A stretch of DNA of 64,000 nt from an uncultured Candidatus Saccharibacteria bacterium (GTDB lineage: Bacteria; Patescibacteriota; Saccharimonadia; Saccharimonadales; UBA4665): the NCBI GenBank assembly GCA_964439405.1, contig CAYTOC010000003.1, positions 20,480 through 84,479 of the forward strand, read 5' to 3'. The position numbers and the translations under genes were made by a program. Under the pieces are notes generated by a model that saw only the letters and a program-made list of their open reading frames with translations, was not told where the DNA came from and made no database searches. Below are positions 2,586-36,995 of the stretch, in pieces; position 1 is the stretch's first letter, and each line of letters opens with the position of its first letter.

Positions 2586-3494
2586 ATGTATTCTTCTCAA
2601 GAATTCCAAGATAATTTGCGAGACATTTCACCGTACTTACCCGAACTGCCACAACAGGACGCATTTGAGGTGCTTGAACGTGCTGAAGAATGGGAGCGAC
2701 GCATACTGGGCCTGCGAAGTGGTGACCAACCCAGACTAGCCCATTACCGCAATGGATCAGCGGTTAGTGAAGATGCCATTACCATATTGCAACATGAGCC
2801 AGTAGCGCCGCTTGTCACAGCCGAGCACGCAACTGATGTGGTACGTAAAGCCACTGGGCAACTTGGTAATGCCGATCACGGCACTGGCGCGCTAGCTGCG
2901 CTGCTGTGGGAAGACTCTCATACAACAAGCATTATCCCAGTAGGCAAGCAAACTGGTAATGCCGCAGTGGATTTGTCTCATCCAGTGAAAGATGCCGTGA
3001 ATACTCTCTTGCCTGCGAGGCCGGCATATCTTTCAGTTCATGGCATGAGAGCAGGCAAGATTACGGGGGTGCATGACACAAGCGAAGTACATGCAATTGT
3101 TGGGCTTGGTAAAACTCCCAATGAACAGAGTGTCGTAAGTGCAGAAAAGCTGCAAAGAGTTGCAAAAGATATCGGGCTTCGAGTAATTATCGGGAACCAA
3201 GAAAGTCACTATGATGTTAATCCCGACACACGTTCACTTGAGTACGACGAAGAGGGTAATCCAAAGCGTGCAAAGCTAGCCGCATTGGGACAGGGTAGTA
3301 TGACAAACCATGCATATACGCTTATGGGTAGGCACGGTATCCAAATTCCAGCAATGCAGCTTGAGATAACGCGAGGGTTACGGCTTATACCTAATGACTT
3401 TGAGTCAGGCTGGCACAAGGATCGCCGCGCTCGGGCAATGAGTGTATATGCGGGATATTTACTTGTTCGGAAAATGGTTGAAACTGTGCAATAA
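2586..3494 (+). CDS. hypothetical protein (weak hint of an N-formylglutamate-amidohydrolase / poly-gamma-glutamate-hydrolase-like fold)
   Basis: Long ORF. The only family hint is YLSVHGMRAG...VHAIVGLGK. Start set to ATG 2586, 6 nt after TGcTAATGT. Confidence 0.5.
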   Translation: MYSSQEFQDNLRDISPYLPELPQQDAFEVLERAEEWERRILGLRSGDQPRLAHYRNGSAVSEDAITILQHEPVAPLVTAEHATDVVRKATGQLGNADHGTGALAALLWEDSHTTSIIPVGKQTGNAAVDLSHPVKDAVNTLLPARPAYLSVHGMRAGKITGVHDTSEVHAIVGLGKTPNEQSVVSAEKLQRVAKDIGLRVIIGNQESHYDVNPDTRSLEYDEEGNPKRAKLAALGQGSMTNHAYTLMGRHGIQIPAMQLEITRGLRLIPNDFESGWHKDRRARAMSVYAGYLLVRKMVETVQ

Positions 3495-30345: not shown

Positions 30346-31136
30346 ACATATTATATATCGGCGATGTGATGGGTGAGCTTGGGCTTAGAACGGTAGAGCG
30401 GGTTTTACCGCGTTTGCGGGCTGAAAAGCAGATAGATTTCGTGGTGGCGCAGGCGGAGAACGTGACAGATGGTAAAGGTATATCAACGGCGGATTTTGCG
30501 CGTTTGCGTAAAGCGGGCGTAGATTTTTGTACCGGTGGTAACTGGACCATGTGGAATGATGATATTTTTCCAGCGCTAAGTGATCCAAGCCAGCCAATTA
30601 TCCGCCCAGCCAATTATCCGGAGGGCACACCGGGTCTTGGCTATAAGTATGCTGACACGCCAAGGGGTAAGGTGCTCGTGGTGAGTTTGCTTGGTGGCAT
30701 CGTCGGTCGTGATAGCGAGAAGCCCGCAGATAATCCACTGCAGGTTGTTGATGCAATCTTGGCGGATGCCGAGGCGCGGGCCGCAACAGTAGTAAATCTG
30801 CATGGTGACTTCAGTAGTGAAAAGGTGGTCATCGGGCAGTATTTAGACGGCAAAGCAAGTATCGTCGTAGGTGATCACTGGCATGTACCAACAGCAGACA
30901 GTAGGGTGTTGCCAGGCGGAACAGCGCATCAAACAGATGTTGGTATGGTTGGCGCACTTGAAGGTAGTCTGGGCGTTGAACTATCTTCAGTTCTGCCACG
31001 TTGGCGCGACGGTCAGCAGACCCGAAATATACTCATTGAGCATGGTCCGACGCAGTTCAATGCGTTGCTGGTAGACGTTGATGAAACAACCGGCTTAGCA
31101 ATTGCCGCCGAGTCCATCCGTCTAGTTTTTGACTGA
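30342..31136 (+). CDS. ymdB: YmdB-family metallophosphoesterase (TIGR00282-like)
   Basis: MNILYIGDVMG..., AENVTDGKGI, GNWTMW and HGDFSSEK. Confidence 0.9.
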   Translation: MNILYIGDVMGELGLRTVERVLPRLRAEKQIDFVVAQAENVTDGKGISTADFARLRKAGVDFCTGGNWTMWNDDIFPALSDPSQPIIRPANYPEGTPGLGYKYADTPRGKVLVVSLLGGIVGRDSEKPADNPLQVVDAILADAEARAATVVNLHGDFSSEKVVIGQYLDGKASIVVGDHWHVPTADSRVLPGGTAHQTDVGMVGALEGSLGVELSSVLPRWRDGQQTRNILIEHGPTQFNALLVDVDETTGLAIAAESIRLVFD

Positions 31137-33057
31137 CCCCTAGAAAATGAGCGCAATAACTGATATACTTACAAAGTTTTCGGGGATTGGCGCAGTTGGC
31201 TAGCGCGCGCGGTTTGGGACCGCGAGGTCGAAGGTTCGAGTCCTTTATCCCCGACCAAGAAGTATTTTCGCTAAAATCCACCATCATATCGTACGGTGGA
31301 TTTAGCTTTATAACAGAGATAGAGTTGTCACGAGCACGTAGGTTCGACACGACCTCACGATACACTGCATCTTCTTCAATTAAATCTGACGTTTCAAGTA
31401 TGGTTTTAAGATACGAGTGGACGAGTTCGACAAACTCTTCACGGGTCGGCAGTGCTCTCTGCAAATCGTCTAGTTCTTTCTGTGAAGCGGTTATCGTAGC
31501 ATTGACGGCGTTAATCTGTGCTTGATGAAACTCTAGCTTGCCAGTGTGATGCTTTTTATATGTTTCAGGGTCTTCAACTTGAAAGGTTTGATACTTTGAG
31601 TACATATCCTTTTGACGTTTTAGCTCTGCTTTCGCCTCTGTTAGCTTTCTTTTTGCTATATCCTTGTCGATGGCTACTCGCTTCTCGATACGGTCAATAT
31701 ACTGCTTGTGAGCCTCTAGAACATTGGCGGTCATATGACGCATCGTCCATTCGATATGAGCCGTAACAAACCGAGCACTGATGCTCTTTGGAAGCTTCTT
31801 GCCATATACCCTAATCGCTTCTTCGTCATTGTGGCGGATACACTCTTTGTTGCGACAGTAGTACGAAATCTGCCAACTACCAGCGTTCTTGCCTCGTTTG
31901 ATTTGGGCACGTTGAAAGCCCATACCGCCATTGCAGTAGTCACAAATAACTTTCTCACGAAGCAACCCGAAGTCTAGCCGTTTAGCGACGTTACTACGTC
32001 CGACAAACTCCTTGTTAAAGCTATCCGACATATTTTTGCTCAAGGCGATGAACTCGTCTGGTGTCATCAGTGGCAGAAAGTTATACGTATCATTTAGGTT
32101 AGCTATATTGTCACCGTATTTGTAAGCACCTGTATAGAACGGGTCGGCAAACATTGTTGCAACAGTCTTCTTGTCCATCTTTGCTTTTTTGTAAGGGTCG
32201 TCTTGGTTCTTACGAAAGCTAAAGTTCGATACGTTCAAGAAGTCTGCTATCTCTTGGTTGGTCTTGCGGTCTTTGAGCCTCATAACAACGGCTTGACGGA
32301 GTAACTGCCAGTGTACCCCGTCTGGCATAAAACGACCCGTATCAGTGTCTGCATAGTAGCCCTTTTTAACAAGCCCGACGTATTTACCCTCGTGGATAGC
32401 ACCAGTGATACCACGTGCCACATCGACGGCTAACTTGTCGCTATATTGCTTTGATGTAGCAAACAAAATACCAAGCATCATTTTGCCGTTCGGCGTGTTG
32501 TCGAAAGCATATGTACAGAACAACAAGTCCTGTATTTTCTCGTAGTCTACGTGTTCGATAATCTGACCACCCTCTAGCATATTGCGTGACAGACGGTCGG
32601 GCGACCACGATATCAAACCGTGATATTTGCCCCTCTCAAATCCCTCCATAATGTCGTTGAAGATGATACGCTTACCAGAGATTTTTGCCGACTGTCGCTC
32701 CTCGAAAATATCCTCTGGACGGACGTATATACCCATCCTTTTCGCTAAATCTAGGCACTCTTTTCGCTGGTCGTCGATTGACCTAACTTGCTTGCGTTCA
32801 TCATCCGTTGATTTGCGTAGGTAGATTACATAACGTCGCTTCTCTTTAGGTAGTATCTTTCGGCTACCCTCCATCGACTGTACGAAGAAGTCTACAAGAC
32901 CATCAACCGTGTATCTGCTCTCTGGAAGATTGAATAGTTCTGGGTTATCTTTAAGGCTTTCAGCCACAACTTGCTCGGCTTGCTTCAACTGCTTATCACT
33001 AAGCGGTACAAGCAATTGCTTCTTGCGTGTTCTAGTTTTCTTATCACCTGTAGCCAT
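31057..33057 (-). CDS. large serine recombinase (resolvase domain + recombinase domain + zinc ribbon + coiled coil)
   Basis: YVIYLRKSTDDERKQVRSIDDQ (catalytic Ser), SWSPDRLSRN and CDYCNGGMGF...YYCRNKEC. Start set to ATG 33057. There is no stop codon before the element boundary, so the last 66 codons are antisense tRNA-Pro and host DNA. Confidence 0.85.
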   Translation of the reverse strand: MATGDKKTRTRKKQLLVPLSDKQLKQAEQVVAESLKDNPELFNLPESRYTVDGLVDFFVQSMEGSRKILPKEKRRYVIYLRKSTDDERKQVRSIDDQRKECLDLAKRMGIYVRPEDIFEERQSAKISGKRIIFNDIMEGFERGKYHGLISWSPDRLSRNMLEGGQIIEHVDYEKIQDLLFCTYAFDNTPNGKMMLGILFATSKQYSDKLAVDVARGITGAIHEGKYVGLVKKGYYADTDTGRFMPDGVHWQLLRQAVVMRLKDRKTNQEIADFLNVSNFSFRKNQDDPYKKAKMDKKTVATMFADPFYTGAYKYGDNIANLNDTYNFLPLMTPDEFIALSKNMSDSFNKEFVGRSNVAKRLDFGLLREKVICDYCNGGMGFQRAQIKRGKNAGSWQISYYCRNKECIRHNDEEAIRVYGKKLPKSISARFVTAHIEWTMRHMTANVLEAHKQYIDRIEKRVAIDKDIAKRKLTEAKAELKRQKDMYSKYQTFQVEDPETYKKHHTGKLEFHQAQINAVNATITASQKELDDLQRALPTREEFVELVHSYLKTILETSDLIEEDAVYREVVSNLRARDNSISVIKLNPPYDMMVDFSENTSWSGIKDSNLRPRGPKPRALANCANPRKLCKYISYCAHFLGVSQKLDGWTRRQLLSRLFHQRLPATH
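31181..31257 (+). tRNA. tRNA-Pro(UGG), CCA encoded; integration target
   Basis: CGGGGAT/ATCCCCG acceptor, CGCGG-TTTGGGA-CCGCG anticodon arm, TTCGAGT T-loop. Confidence 0.95.
31240..31257 (+). repeat. attL core GTCCTTTATCCCCGACCA (3' end of the intact tRNA-Pro)
   Basis: Identical 18-mer at 36978-36995. Confidence 0.85.
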
Positions 33058-33120
33058 ACTGCCTATCATTATAGCTTGTAATATAGGTTCGACGTTTTTC
33101 TGGTATATAATAAGACCACA

Positions 33121-33852
33121 ATGAACTTCACTTGCCCATACTGTAACCACGCTACGACGATAACCGACCCGAACAAGTACAACCTCTGGGAAAAGGTAGC
33201 CATAAAACAAAATAACACAAATTACACCCACGATATCGGCGTTGGATTTTTAGTTATTGCTTGTCCAAATCAAGACTGTAAGGAGCTCACAGTAACTTCA
33301 AGACTAACTGGGTCAAAAACTGGCTACAACCAAGTGCAAGGTAGCTTCAATGCACCAGATGCGAGTACCTTATACAAAGAGTGGCGACTAGTGCCAGATA
33401 CAGACGCCAAACCTCAGCCAAGCTATATACCCAAGCAACTGGTGCAGGATTATACGGAAGCGTGCAAGATTAGAGATTTAAGCCCTAAAGCATCTGCCAC
33501 CCTTGCTCGTCGTTGCCTACAGGGTATGATACGAGACTTTCACGGTGTTAAAGACAAGAAGTCTTTGTACGATGAAATTGACGCCCTGAAAGGGGTTATC
33601 CCTACAAGCGAGTGGGACGCACTGGACAGCCTACGTTCTATTGGTAACATCGGTGCTCATATGGAAAAGGACGTTGACCTTATCATAGACGTCACATCCG
33701 AAGAGGCTAATACTCTAATTGCTTTCATCGAGTATCTTTTTAAACAATGGTATGTAAAGCGTCACGACGACGAAGAGAACTTACGTGCCGTTAAGGCAAT
33801 TGCTGGCATTAAAAAGGCTCAGAAGAAGCCTGCCCCTGAAAAATCTGAGTAG
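33121..33852 (+). CDS. Zn-ribbon + DUF4145 domain protein
   Basis: CPYCNH...CPNQDC N-terminus, then ARRCLQGMIRDFHG...LRSIGNIGAHME...LIAFIEYLF, the DUF4145 helical-domain pattern. The -10 box ends 9 nt upstream of the ATG. Confidence 0.75.
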   Translation: MNFTCPYCNHATTITDPNKYNLWEKVAIKQNNTNYTHDIGVGFLVIACPNQDCKELTVTSRLTGSKTGYNQVQGSFNAPDASTLYKEWRLVPDTDAKPQPSYIPKQLVQDYTEACKIRDLSPKASATLARRCLQGMIRDFHGVKDKKSLYDEIDALKGVIPTSEWDALDSLRSIGNIGAHMEKDVDLIIDVTSEEANTLIAFIEYLFKQWYVKRHDDEENLRAVKAIAGIKKAQKKPAPEKSE

Positions 33853-33880
33853 TCTACATCTACCGACACCCAATAATAGT

Positions 33881-33889
33881 TGCTATAAT
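33881..33889 (+). promoter_or_regulatory. extended -10 promoter TGcTATAAT
   Basis: Consensus extended -10. The predicted transcription start site (TSS, ~33896) coincides with the first base of the P1 stem of the downstream structured RNA. Confidence 0.5.
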
Positions 33890-33895
33890 CAGATT

Positions 33896-34045
33896 GTCTA
33901 GCTTGTTTAATACGCAATAATTTACCGCTCGGCTTTTGCCGTAATGGTTTTTAGCTTTAGAAAGGGGCATCGCCCGAAACAGTAAGCTAAAACTTATTGC
34001 GGAACAAACAGGCTAGACACCCGTTGGCGGTGTCCCTTTTTATTT
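33896..34045 (+). ncRNA. candidate structured RNA (sRNA or riboswitch-like leader) with an intrinsic terminator
   Basis: Nested helices. P1 is 33896-33908/34006-34018 (13 bp, one G-U). P2 is 33913-33920/33994-34001 (8 bp). P3 is 33949-33957/33984-33992 (9 bp). Small hairpins at 33930-33941 and 33965-33975. Terminator stem 34016-34034 followed by TTTTT. Confidence 0.45.
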
Positions 34046-34088
34046 AAGGCACTTCTACGGTTACAGCAACTAAATAGGAGTGTCTAAA

Positions 34089-34316
34089 ATGAAAGACCGC
34101 AAAACTTACAAAATACTAACCGCTTGTAGTTTCATACTACCGATTAACCGATGGTATCTCGGCAACGGCAAGGGTGCTATCGGGCGAAGTATCAGTGCCA
34201 ATTATTTGCTTATGGGTTGGCTCGGTGACCTGTTTTATATGGACAAGACTTTTGACGAGGCTATGGCTAAGCGTGGTTTTGCAAACACCAACATCCGAAA
34301 CGAGCAGGGTCGTTAG
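34089..34316 (+). CDS. small degenerate TM2-domain-like protein
   Basis: INRWYLGNGKGAIGRSISANYLLMGWLGDLFYMD resembles the TM2 motif. AGGAG lies 8 nt upstream of ATG 34089. Confidence 0.5.
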   Translation: MKDRKTYKILTACSFILPINRWYLGNGKGAIGRSISANYLLMGWLGDLFYMDKTFDEAMAKRGFANTNIRNEQGR

Positions 34317-34319
34317 ATT

Positions 34320-36242
34320 TTATATACCAAATTGCTTCAGTATAGCTTCTGCTAAGTCGTGCAGTTTTGGAGCATCTGTTTTGAATGTGCTTTTAGGAGT
34401 ATATTTCGAGACGCTAACTTTAATCGCCATCAGGATGTCGTCTATTTCCTGCTTCTTGTCTTTCTTTGTTTTGCCCTCTTCTGATATTTCTTTCTGAAGA
34501 TGCAAGGTCAACTGATTACAAAATGGCGTTTTTTCATCTAGAGTGATATCGGCAACACCATTCTTCTTAAACTGCTTATTGGCCTCACTCTGAACAAAGG
34601 TCATAGGCAAAGCGTCTTCAATCGTACCGTCCTCAATAATGTCACCGTTTAAGTTACGTATTGTATGGACATTACCCTTAAATAACTTGTCGCCAATTTT
34701 TTCGATTTCCTTTTTCATTTTTTTGCCTTGTTCATCATCGTCGGTCATTACCATCGAGGAGACCCTATAGAACGCCATAAGAGTAGCGGTTGCGACAATA
34801 GTGTTACCCGTGCCATTTGCAATCGAAATGTTATGGTCTTTGTTTATCTTCGCAAGAGCAGTCTCTAGCAAGTTCTTGTCGGTCGCACCCTCTACCAACA
34901 GCTTACGTTCTGGCAAGAAGTCAGCAATGACGTTGATACCGAATGCAGATTTCAAAATGTCGTCGTTCGTTATGTCCTCTTCAGTTTTGATTTGGCGTGA
35001 CTGAGTAAGTCCAGCTTTACTTTTCGTCAGCAAGTAGTGCCTATCCTTGGTTTTTTCGTCAATCATAAAGTTTGAATGGGTAGAGATGAACAGGTAGTTG
35101 TTTTTGCCTATCTCCAGCAGTTCGTCTCGCATCCAGCGTATACCAGACGGGTGCAGATGTACTTCTGGTTCGTCAATTAGCACCAAATGGTCTTTTACGT
35201 CACCAGACAAACTACTTATTGAGATACTCAAAAGCATTGACACAAACTGCTTGAAACCCTGACTTCTGTCGGACATATTGAAGCGGTTGGATTTGTCAGA
35301 CTTGTCTTTAACATAAACATAGGCACTCAGGTCGCTCTCTACTCGAACTTCAATTTCGATTTCGTGTTCATTCCACTTCTTGTTGAGGTACTCAGTTGAC
35401 TTGGTACCTAGAGTGTCGCCAAGCTTGAGGCGTTCATTGTTGGATTTTTCGGCTTCGTTAACAATTGCCGTTATATCCTTGTCAGTTGTATACCCTGCTA
35501 AGTAGAAAATGTTCTTTAGTGGGATATTAGCATCTGTCGATTTAATAAAATCTTTAAGCTGTACTTGTTCTGGCACTAGATACTTGTCTTTTTCTTCCGA
35601 CTTCCATACGTCCACTGGAATATCGTGAGCCGTTACATAATCGAGCAATGCTTGCTTGATGATATCCTTGAAGCTCTCTGCATCAAGTTGCGTGTACGTC
35701 TCTTTCTCTTCGTCCGTAAGCTCTGAGTTAGCCTTTATGGTAACGGTTTCCTCGGCACTGGTAGCTGGCGTTGTCGGTGTGGCAGGCGTGCTAGCAGACA
35801 CTTTGATGTAACTGTATTTTTTAACATCTACTTTATTCGCCTCGTAGTCACAATCGACTTCGTACTGGTCGAAACCTTTTTGCAAGTACATCTCTTTGTA
35901 GAGCTTCGTTATCTTTAGGTTATCTAAAAGTTGTTGCGGTATGGTGATTGCTTGAGCTATTGCACTGCGGTAGTCGTCTTCGTCATCTGTCTCAAATCCG
36001 AAAAATACTGACACGATACTAGCGTCTACACCTTGTTGCTTATTCTTGTAGTCTTCGAAAGCGACGGTGTCTTTATTCTGTGGCGTAGCCATAGCATCAA
36101 GTACATTGCTTTTACCAGTTTCATTTTTACCGATGAGAATTGTAGTGTAACTTGCACTCTCGCCCTTGCCATATTTCGTGACAGGGAAATCAAGTTCCTC
36201 GATGGACTTGTACCCTCTGATTTTTATTTCAACAAGCTTCAT
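34320..36242 (-). CDS. OLD-family nuclease (ABC-type ATPase + C-terminal Toprim), stand-alone
   Basis: Walker A GKNETGKSN, Walker B/D-loop LVLIDEPEVHLHP, and Toprim LLVEGATDKNLL with MTDDDEQG. Confidence 0.85.
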   Translation of the reverse strand: MKLVEIKIRGYKSIEELDFPVTKYGKGESASYTTILIGKNETGKSNVLDAMATPQNKDTVAFEDYKNKQQGVDASIVSVFFGFETDDEDDYRSAIAQAITIPQQLLDNLKITKLYKEMYLQKGFDQYEVDCDYEANKVDVKKYSYIKVSASTPATPTTPATSAEETVTIKANSELTDEEKETYTQLDAESFKDIIKQALLDYVTAHDIPVDVWKSEEKDKYLVPEQVQLKDFIKSTDANIPLKNIFYLAGYTTDKDITAIVNEAEKSNNERLKLGDTLGTKSTEYLNKKWNEHEIEIEVRVESDLSAYVYVKDKSDKSNRFNMSDRSQGFKQFVSMLLSISISSLSGDVKDHLVLIDEPEVHLHPSGIRWMRDELLEIGKNNYLFISTHSNFMIDEKTKDRHYLLTKSKAGLTQSRQIKTEEDITNDDILKSAFGINVIADFLPERKLLVEGATDKNLLETALAKINKDHNISIANGTGNTIVATATLMAFYRVSSMVMTDDDEQGKKMKKEIEKIGDKLFKGNVHTIRNLNGDIIEDGTIEDALPMTFVQSEANKQFKKNGVADITLDEKTPFCNQLTLHLQKEISEEGKTKKDKKQEIDDILMAIKVSVSKYTPKSTFKTDAPKLHDLAEAILKQFGI

Positions 36243-36268
36243 AGTGCTAATTGTAGCATACTTTCACA

Positions 36269-36298
36269 GTTATAAACTGCTTATGCTAATCTGTCAAA
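36269..36298 (-). promoter_or_regulatory. sigma70-like promoter of the OLD gene (TTGACA, 18-nt spacer, TATAAC)
   Basis: Minus-strand TTGACA at 36298-36293 and TATAAC at 36274-36269. The -10 is bracketed by the inverted repeat TAGCATA (36254-36260) / TATGCTA (36282-36288). Confidence 0.5.
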
Positions 36299-36430
36299 GT
36301 TTGTTGGCAACGTCAATCTGTTGGAAATCGCCACCCCTGTTCCAACAATTTAATGTTGGGCGAAACGAAAACATCCGATTTTTTGGCATCGGGACATATT
36401 TAGGTAGGTAGTGCGTTTACGCTTCCATAT

Positions 36431-36467
36431 AAAAAAGCCCCCTTGATAGGTAGGGGGGCTTATATTT
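36431..36467 (-). terminator. intrinsic terminator after the two small ORFs
   Basis: AGCCCCC/GGGGGCT stem with an A-run on the plus strand, which reads as a T-run on the minus strand. Confidence 0.7.
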
Positions 36468-36468
36468 G

Positions 36469-36630
36469 CTACTCTTCGTCTTCTGCTCGTATATACTTTT
36501 CGCCACTAGGGTCGGTAGAGACTTTGTTGTCCCAGTTGCTCGTATCGGTTGCTGATTGTTGCGGTGGCAACTCTACAACTTCACTTTCTTGAAGCATAGC
36601 GTTTTCTTTGGCTTCGTCGGTGTCGCTCAT
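36469..36630 (-). CDS. possible 53-aa acidic protein
   Basis: ATG-initiated MSDTDEAKENAMLQESEVVELPPQQ..., 17 nt downstream of the 78-aa ORF and directly followed by a terminator. Confidence 0.35.
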   Translation of the reverse strand: MSDTDEAKENAMLQESEVVELPPQQSATDTSNWDNKVSTDPSGEKYIRAEDEE

Positions 36631-36647
36631 ATTATTTACATTATACG

Positions 36648-36884
36648 CTAAAGAAACTTGATAAGCTCCAAGCCCTCTGGCTTTACGGTATTATCGACAA
36701 TACGCTGTAGCTTCTCCACCTTGTCCCTAAATTGCTGATGATTTCGCAAAATCGCATATAGACTGTCTTGCAGGTAGGTTCGTTGAGTGTCGTTCTGAGC
36801 CGACCAATAAAAATGACTTGGCTTGCCCAGGTCTTTTTTATTGGTTTGTGTTGATGTCTCGAACCTTCGACAGAGATTTTGCAT
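36648..36884 (-). CDS. 78-aa hypothetical protein next to attR (recombination directionality factor or regulator is speculation)
   Basis: ORF in the track. Its ATG directly abuts the TGA that would end the recombinase frame in the excised circle. Confidence 0.45.
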   Translation of the reverse strand: MQNLCRRFETSTQTNKKDLGKPSHFYWSAQNDTQRTYLQDSLYAILRNHQQFRDKVEKLQRIVDNTVKPEGLELIKFL

Positions 36885-36977
36885 TCAGCAAAATATCGTA
36901 GTCGATGGTACGGCGAAGTAAGAAAAGGAATGCGGATGCTTGCATTCGACCCATTTCTTGCGGAGGAGCGGAGCGAT

Positions 36978-36995
36978 GTCCTTTATCCCCGACCA
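36978..36995 (+). repeat. attR core GTCCTTTATCCCCGACCA (displaced tRNA-Pro 3' end)
   Basis: Identical to 31240-31257. There is no tRNA body upstream of it. Confidence 0.85.

Follow-up and report, generated by a model that had tools for sequence, protein, structure and literature searches.

A structured leader RNA of Saccharibacteria mobile elements in which a pseudoknot and a terminator-like hairpin compete for one 3' segment

In the fluoride (crcB, RF01734), ZTP (pfl, RF01750) and preQ1-I riboswitches, a loop or upstream strand of the 5' leader pairs with the 3' tail beside the terminator, the pseudoknot and the terminator hairpin being mutually exclusive and regulation being kinetic and co-transcriptional. 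Structured leader RNAs are also found in mobile elements: the CI RNA of phage P4 and the c4 RNA of phages P1 and P7 lie in the leader of their own operon, where a loop pairs with a downstream segment, leading to control of termination or translation. Here, an RNA with the same 5' leader logic as the three riboswitches is described from a 64,000-nt stretch of DNA of an uncultured Candidatus Saccharibacteria bacterium (contig CAYTOC010000003.1, positions 20,480 to 84,479 of the forward strand), hereafter called the window, in whose numbering coordinates are given unless a locus is named. The RNA precedes an open reading frame (ORF) for a 75-aa protein on an integrative island, and it is read here, with somewhat better than even confidence, as a portable, cis-acting transcription-attenuation leader of Saccharibacteria integrative islands and phages. 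No published natural cis-regulatory structured RNA of Saccharibacteria or Patescibacteria was found in the literature that could be searched, the unnamed entries of two catalogues (PMC8040213, PMC10690425) being uncompared, and one perspective lists control elements of the riboswitch type among the genetic tools wanted for these bacteria (PMC11665869).

The region 33896-34045 is folded by RNAfold at -55.0 kcal/mol against a shuffle mean of -35.1 kcal/mol (z = -5.49; 0 of 200 shuffles equal this value), while the opposite strand folds more weakly (z = -3.76). The minimum-energy structure contains the helices that a first-pass annotation had read from the sequence, so that reading and calculation agree on a multi-helix junction closed by P1 (13 bp, including one G-U pair) and holding P2, P3 and P4 (Table 1). 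Two small hairpins had also been proposed inside the junction. The one at 33930-33941 is present, whereas the 4-bp hairpin at 33965-33975 is not conserved: it cannot form in L043-type and other variants, and its bases belong to the pseudoknot described below. A 13-codon ORF starting at the AUG at 33944 was likewise rejected as a leader peptide, as it is not conserved and its AUG is missing in, for example, loci L007, L014 and L047.

Homologues of the RNA were gathered by two routes. The 75-aa ORF has 135 database relatives (58-96% identity), of which the named ones are from Saccharibacteria, and a scan of species-representative genomes with this ORF yielded 52 loci. The RNA was detected upstream of the ORF in 21 of these by nhmmer and in 44, on the + strand, by a covariance model (R1) built from the nested helices P1-P4 only, with the pseudoknot excluded. 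For the second route, a first pattern used on viral contigs was less specific and mostly gave chance matches; the covariance model clearly confirmed two of the 80 viral loci, with a third, weak match at 23.8 bits. A sharper pattern, consisting of RNA positions only and fixing the pseudoknot core and the U-tract, was then used for metagenomes and returned 94 stretches, across which the model confirmed the RNA (95 instances counted). Together, the genome and metagenome sets hold 122 distinct RNA sequences. BLAST searches of phage and plasmid collections with the RNA gave nothing meaningful.

Covariation in these sequences is well beyond chance. In an alignment of 30 genome sequences, 94.3% of the cells are paired, compared to 71.6% in shuffles (0 of 500 reach the observed value) and 41-49% with slid partners. 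The 70 metagenome sequences, an independent set whose alignment is free of reverse-strand echoes, give 91.7% versus 70.5%. P1 is 98.2% paired with 12 of its 13 pairs changed on both sides in the genomes (98.5% paired in the metagenome set), P2 is 99.1% paired with 7 of 8 pairs compensatory (97.2%, 8 of 8) and P4 is 94.8% paired with 8 of 9 pairs compensatory (90.1%, 9 of 9). Pairing of P3 is partly kept (outer pairs 67%, inner pairs 88% in the 30 genomes); its length is variable, the hairpin is much reduced in L023, and a few divergent variants (L042 and L049, for example) have no aligned P2. P1, P2 and P4, as read in the first-pass annotation, covary in both of the separately gathered sets.

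A plain MAFFT alignment submitted to RNAalifold returned not the junction but a long-range helix, 33962-33974 / 34026-34038. This helix is a 13-bp pseudoknot in which the P4 loop pairs with the loop and 3' arm of the terminator hairpin and with the first U residues. In the 30-sequence alignment, which was not fitted to the pseudoknot, it is 96.9% paired with 10 of 13 pairs doubly changed. Its length is 11-13 and up to 17 Watson-Crick or G-U pairs, with a possible extension across the whole U5 tract. Although the distal bases are part of the local hairpin's loop, their changes are matched by changes in the P4 loop, and at least six states occur (GCC/GGC, GUG/CAC, GCA/UGC, GCG/CGC, GUAC/GUAC and GUGC/GCAC). 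Cognate distal combinations form a contiguous helix of 3.5 pairs versus 2.1 for non-cognate ones, and the free distal positions also covary in the 70 metagenome sequences (CG 37 and UA 30; GC 23, CG 12 and AU 8).

These pairings also bear on the idea that the inverted repeats act as DNA, i.e., as a recombinase, regulator-binding or cruciform site by the serine recombinase gene. Large serine recombinase genes are indeed frequently close, and the covariance model gives weak reverse-strand matches, the helices being palindromic in DNA. However, G-U pairs, which would be mismatches in DNA or on the other strand, are common and in places invariant (all 70 metagenome sequences have G-U at the pseudoknot pair G33967-U34033), the sequence drifts while pairing is kept, and the model scores 178.8 bits on the + strand of the window compared to 38.4 bits on the - strand. 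In addition, a promoter and a U-tract frame the element, and copies on phage contigs lie far from any recombinase. A DNA-level function is extremely improbable.

The 3' segment of the pseudoknot has a second partner, the GACACC arm of the adjacent terminator-like hairpin. This arm is nearly invariant across loci and changes when the 3' segment changes, the P4 loop following as the third partner: L032 replaces A:U:A by G:C:G, L042 and L049 carry an extra A:U:A, and the L029 group has an extra C:G:C. As both partners change along with the 3' segment, both of its pairings are under selection, and the segment has the two alternative, co-varying and mutually exclusive structures expected of an expression platform. 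The pseudoknot duplex amounts to -20 to -30 kcal/mol in nearly all variants and the local hairpin to -6 to -12 kcal/mol.

According to the first-pass annotation, which suggested a riboswitch-like architecture, P1 itself would be the competitor of the terminator, each excluding the other through a shared GAC. Taken as a classical metabolite riboswitch, the RNA would bind a ligand in the junction, and this would stabilise P1 against the terminator. The sequence was read correctly in that the 3' strand of P1 shares GAC (34016-34018) with the GACACC/GGTGTC terminator stem, which is followed by T5 at 34037-34041. The overlap, however, is only 3 nt and P1 keeps 10 bp when the terminator hairpin forms, so that the two are not strictly exclusive; from the covariation, the true competitor of the hairpin for the 3' segment is the pseudoknot, which had been overlooked. 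A metabolite riboswitch would agree with the position in the 5' untranslated region (UTR), with the conserved junction and its A-rich joining regions, and with a terminator directly after P1, and a conserved, covarying structured 5'-UTR domain is the generic mark of riboswitches. It would have to be a new class, as no known family matches: the fold was not recognised in the first-pass annotation, a scan of the whole window against Rfam 15 (4227 models) at gathering thresholds found 8 tRNAs only, and the RNA in 20 further loci with diverse copies had no family match either. A permissive scan of 33700-34400 gave chance-level matches only, among them Phe_leader with 18 bits where the gathering score is 55 (E = 2.7). 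The downstream genes encode heterogeneous mobile-element membrane proteins, however, rather than a metabolic or transport regulon indicating a ligand, and the P2 and P3 variants L042, L049 and L023 show that much of the junction is dispensable. Of the riboswitch-like architecture, the structured, covarying leader with alternative structures stands, whereas no ligand can be inferred and the switch between P1 and the terminator is unsupported; a metabolite riboswitch of this design is unlikely.

The preferred reading, attenuation in cis, may be put in steps. Transcription would begin from the RNA's own extended -10 promoter at the first base of P1, and the transcript would fold into the P1-closed junction with P2, the variable P3 and P4. 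The 26-nt P4 loop would then compete with the adjacent GACACC arm for the 3' segment GGCGGUGUCCCUU, which leads into the U-tract, and whichever helix holds the segment while the polymerase is on the U-tract would decide between a stop at ~34041-34045 and read-through to the membrane-protein gene. A further hairpin that masks the Shine-Dalgarno sequence (SD) and AUG of this gene would gate ribosome entry as well. A regulatory role of this arrangement is inferred, as is the direction in which it would act. Its core would be the competition of the two partners for the 3' segment.

A terminator scan lists the hairpin 34016-34034, and a G+C-rich stem stands directly before the U-tract, as in intrinsic terminators; termination there is predicted. 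The local hairpin consists of 6 bp and is followed by CCC and then U5, while the 13-bp long-range helix abuts or includes the U-tract. There is a slight lean towards the pseudoknot as the stronger terminating (OFF) helix, because it has the canonical terminator order of A-tract, GC-rich stem and U-tract and abuts the U residues, while CCC separates the local hairpin from them. Given the large difference in stability between the helices, a trigger, if any (a small molecule, ion, protein or RNA), probably exerts its effect either kinetically or through occupation of the P4 loop.

Table 1. Coordinates of the leader RNA, its pairing partners and associated features in the window
Feature	Position	Strand	Partner or sequence	Remarks
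tRNA-Pro	31181-31257			
Extended -10 box	33881-33889	+	TGCTATAAT	From sequence; predicted transcription start ~33896
Structured leader RNA	33896-34045	+		Folded region, ~150 nt
P1, 5' strand	33896-33908	+	34006-34018	Minimum-energy fold
P2, 5' strand	33913-33920	+	33994-34001	8 bp; minimum-energy fold
P3 hairpin	33924-33948	+	Outer pairs 33924-33927 / 33945-33948; inner pairs 33930-33933 / 33938-33941	Sequence and length variable; minimum-energy fold
P4, 5' strand	33949-33957	+	33984-33992	9 bp; minimum-energy fold
P4 loop	33958-33983	+		26 nt; holds the pseudoknot 5' strand
Pseudoknot, 5' strand	33962-33974	+	AAGGGGCAUCGCC; 34026-34038	In the P4 loop
P4, 3' strand	33984-33992	+	33949-33957	Fold, and covariation in both sequence sets
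P2, 3' strand	33994-34001	+	33913-33920	Fold, and covariation in both sequence sets
P1, 3' strand	34006-34018	+	33896-33908	Last 3 nt, GAC, common to the local hairpin
Local terminator-like hairpin, 5' arm	34016-34021	+	GACACC; GGTGTC at 34029-34034	Terminator scan
Shared 3' segment	34026-34038	+	GGCGGUGUCCCUU; P4 loop or, for 34029-34034, the adjacent 5' arm	
U-tract	34037-34045	+	UUUUUAUUU	T5 at 34037-34041; expected transcript 3' end ~34041-34045
SD-sequestering hairpin	34048-34084	+	GGCACUUCU 34048-34056 pairs with AGGAGUGUC 34076-34084	
75-aa ORF, weakly TM2-like	34089-34316	+		Directly 3' of the leader; 135 homologues

The promoter that the first-pass annotation had placed ahead of the closing helix is conserved: in nearly all loci, the first base of P1 is preceded at 6-7 nt by a TGnTATAAT-like box, with no conservation farther upstream, and this fixed distance is the reason for placing the transcription start at P1. 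The U-tract is conserved in all variants except the L029 group, and the whole order proposed earlier, a structured 5' leader running from a promoter to an intrinsic-terminator-like element and followed by SD and ATG, is borne out. In the window, AGGAG lies at 34076-34080 and the ATG at 34089, and neither a promoter scan nor inspection of the spacer found a separate promoter for the ORF, in line with the first reading; -10-like hexamers in the loop of the SD hairpin were dismissed by eye, as the invariant final T is missing. The full leader folds at -81.4 kcal/mol (z = -7.1), with the U-tract and the AUG region joining the SD hairpin. In most loci, an SD-masking hairpin lies 3' of the U-tract and varies in sequence together with the SD region, the anti-SD/SD pairing being kept with differing sequences in many loci; short-spacer variants have ~10-20 nt between U-tract and SD and no SD hairpin. 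A coupling of the 3' segment with the anti-SD strand was considered and set aside, being clear by eye in the L029 group only and not conserved elsewhere.

The loci L029-L041, L045 and L050 (~2677-3001), from ERR589-series and other metagenome-assembled genomes, form a closely related group in which the RNA has no U-tract. Here, the hairpins form a chain of alternatives, AGGAGCACC being a partner of the 3' segment on one side and of the SD region on the other, and the RNA is followed by an ORF of only 2 codons; the TM2-like ORF starts ~170 nt farther on, possibly from its own promoter. The group may represent a translational or a decaying variant.

In most RNA-anchored loci with a callable ORF, a co-oriented ORF begins ~16-56 nt after the U-tract, with a few at up to ~105 nt. 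The first-pass annotation had tied the RNA to TM2-like ORFs or DUF4145 neighbours, an association that dissolves in the wider set, where the RNA precedes many unrelated mobile-element membrane-protein genes. The 75-aa TM2-like protein is found at 31 loci, an N-terminally anchored family of ~150-185 aa that includes DUF4352 proteins (E = 2e-26) at 15, a second N-anchored family at 5 and bPH_2 proteins (E = 2e-14) at at least 4; L210 has a canonical TM2 protein (E = 1.4e-10), and several mini-proteins with 2-3 transmembrane (TM) segments occur as singletons and pairs. By a simple hydropathy count and family membership, more than 85% of the downstream products are estimated to be membrane proteins. 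The window's own 75-aa protein has no match to the Pfam TM2 domain (PF05154), and 9 of 25 homologues match it below threshold (best E = 0.008); an AlphaFold model (mean pLDDT 59.7) was too low in confidence for a fold search and was not used. In six genome loci, another membrane-anchored ORF stands between the RNA and the TM2-like ORF. Two contigs bear two RNA copies each: on L205 (7082-7230 and 9410-9555) the copies precede different ORFs, the second being a TM2-like ORF broken by a stop codon, and on L200 (12971-13410, - strand) they are ~170 nt apart.

Outside Saccharibacteria, homologues of the 75-aa ORF were seen in L031 (a Corynebacterium callunae contig), L044 (Isobaculum melis) and L028 (~2700-3010), where they directly follow another ORF whose stop touches their ATG; the upstream ORF of L044 is DUF4352-like by eye. 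The leader RNA was not detected within the flanks fetched for these three loci. Corynebacterium belongs to the Actinomycetota, a phylum that includes known hosts of Saccharibacteria.

The small membrane proteins and the masked SD raise the question of whether the leader senses anything at all. It could be a non-sensing cassette, or a toxin-type mRNA leader, that stabilises the 5' end and holds expression of potentially toxic small membrane proteins at a very low level, with alternative pairings that succeed one another in order during co-transcriptional folding, as they do in hok-family mRNAs. Three-partner coupled covariation as observed here is reportedly a hallmark of hok mRNA folding intermediates, a point attributed to Franch and Gerdes in 1997. 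Many of the downstream products are small membrane proteins (in the window a 75-aa, weakly hydrophobic one), both SD and AUG are masked, and a pseudoknot much more stable than the hairpin fits a folding intermediate that gives way to a final state. On the other hand, an antisense RNA gene or promoter was not noticed as a conserved feature: the promoter scan of the window showed no antisense promoter facing the ORF or the leader, although no systematic search was made across loci. Some of the products are 150-435 aa long, have extracytoplasmic domains (DUF4352, bPH_2) and do not resemble type I toxins, and the conserved loop and joining sequences exceed what a stabiliser needs. A mere stabiliser or toxin leader is given little credence.

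Several observations weigh against the attenuation reading. The pseudoknot core and the U-tract are uninformative in the metagenome set, since the search pattern had fixed them in advance. With a pseudoknot so much more stable than the local hairpin, the two states lack the balance of typical riboswitches, and what looks like a 'switch' could be a mere folding intermediate. Nothing in the downstream genes suggests a ligand, and the start and 3' end of the transcript are predictions from the sequence. Furthermore, each end of the RNA is closed in a helix, a trait of stable stand-alone RNAs, and the first RNA of L200 has no evident downstream ORF.

The last two points would suit a stand-alone stable small RNA of 146-150 nt, released at the U-tract and sealed by P1 at the 5' end and by the pseudoknot at the 3' end. 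It could act in trans like P4 CI or P1 c4, the distal bases serving as a specificity code and the ORF being expressed through leak-through only. Such an RNA would have its own promoter and terminator, its ends are base-paired from the terminal nucleotides, with the pseudoknot able to cover the whole of U5, and it resides on mobile elements, often beside an integrase, the usual place of immunity functions. Co-resident copies also differ in the distal pseudoknot, between L010 and L043 of one genome as well as within L205 and L200. However, a co-oriented ORF, from many unrelated families, almost always lies close behind, the SD-masking hairpin is coupled to the leader, and the L029-group variant cannot be a discrete terminated RNA because it has no U-tract. 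Nor are there P4-loop-complementary sites in the window beyond chance: with up to two mismatches to the 3' segment, only the cognate site, the complement of the P4 loop and two chance-consistent sites were found. A stand-alone RNA is conceivable but not probable. The cis-acting leader is preferred because of its modularity, the strict co-orientation and short spacing of the ORF, SD masking, multiple copies per element and the terminator-less variant.

By analogy with the phage P4 CI RNA, the leader may even be an RNA-only immunity or insulation device of mobile elements of the candidate phyla radiation (CPR), whose P4 loop, by pairing with the stretch directly ahead of the U-tract, would terminate its own and cognate transcripts with the variable distal 3-5 bp as specificity code; this proposal is speculative and of low probability. 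The analogy draws on the six or more distal states and on their differences between copies in one genome or contig, and if it held, the distal code would keep co-resident elements orthogonal. In a related scenario, a default-off block would be lifted by an infection or host-contact signal, and membrane-acting exclusion or abortive-infection proteins would thereby be switched on.

The island of the window is delimited by an exact 18-nt direct repeat: the last 18 nt of tRNA-Pro, GTCCTTTATCCCCGACCA (31240-31257), recur at 36978-36995, so that the element spans 5.7 kb (31240-36995) and is integrated at the 3' end of tRNA-Pro. It encodes a large serine recombinase (Resolvase and Recombinase domains; integrase phrog_95), a DUF4145 protein matching the PD-T7-4 defence model, an OLD-family ATPase-Toprim nuclease on the opposite strand, the unit of RNA and 75-aa ORF, and two small unannotated ORFs, and looks like a miniature defence island. 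The mechanically called recombinase ORF (31057-33231, - strand) crosses the island end and tRNA-Pro on the opposite strand, as well as overlapping the first part of the DUF4145 gene. The true recombinase gene probably spans ~31261-33057, and for this reason integration may alter the recombinase C-terminus. A strong, bidirectional-looking terminator hairpin, AAGCCCCCTTGATAGGTAGGGGGGCTT (36435-36461), is located just downstream of an unannotated ORF (36469-36630, - strand) and ~190 nt past the point where the OLD nuclease gene begins.

In ~29 of the 52 ORF-anchored loci, a large serine recombinase is found no farther than 3 kb away, in most cases upstream and divergently oriented; among the 41 RNA-anchored loci with enough flank, 10 have one within 3.5 kb on the upstream side. 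A group of 12 loci has neither a nearby recombinase nor a U-tract; its neighbouring gene is presumably a GH13-type alpha-glucan branching enzyme, as judged by reading the sequence rather than by a domain scan. One RNA-bearing viral contig has ORFs the size of terminase, portal and capsid genes, according to a reading of their translations. L010 and L043 lie ~157 kb apart on one contig (JAECRG010000001.1), which hence carries two RNA-ORF units and two different serine recombinases; the two ORFs have diverged (87% and 63% identity to the query), and the two RNAs differ in their distal pseudoknot sequences (GCC/GGC versus GUG/CAC). The motif GGTTCAAC...GTATAT recurs ~30-60 nt upstream of the RNA promoter in L007, L009, L012, L014, L016, L023 and others, between recombinase gene and RNA promoter where both adjoin, and may mark the region where the recombinase gene starts or else a site of regulation. 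Leader copies close to 5S rRNA or tRNA genes (L236 868-976, L208 15-86 and L214 2202-2274) are consistent with integration next to RNA genes.

The motif is abundant, modular and tied to mobile elements and phages of Saccharibacteria epibionts. The leader may therefore show how mobile elements control the envelope proteins that they add to their hosts, proteins that are candidates for superinfection exclusion or host-contact functions.

Cis-regulatory attenuator leaders are a known kind of element, among which this RNA forms a new class, unusual in its platform, its host range and the genes that it accompanies. The unusual part of the platform is the pseudoknot's use of the terminator 3' arm and the U-tract: unlike in the fluoride, ZTP and preQ1-I riboswitches, the pseudoknot 3' strand comprises the hairpin loop, the 3' arm and the first U residues instead of the 5' arm, and with 11-13 and up to 17 pairs the pseudoknot is stable without ligand and may itself terminate transcription. 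The leader also shares no Rfam sequence or structure match with these riboswitches, and its genes are those of mobile-element membrane proteins. A contact between a loop of the sensing domain and the loop of an expression-platform hairpin is known from the cobalamin riboswitch (the L5-L13 kissing loop), but here the interaction goes well past the two loops, reaching into the 3' arm of the hairpin, and there is no homology. With the hok/sok family, the leader shares three-partner covariation, a masked SD and small membrane-protein products; it differs in being modular, in preceding many unrelated genes, some of them long, and in having a terminator between leader and ORF. Like the P4 CI and P1/P7 c4 RNAs (Rfam C4, RF01695), it is a structured RNA within a leader of a mobile element, although it has no Rfam match to C4. 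In contrast to these RNAs, the pairing of the leader takes place within one molecule, and the proteins encoded downstream are membrane proteins rather than replication or antirepressor proteins.

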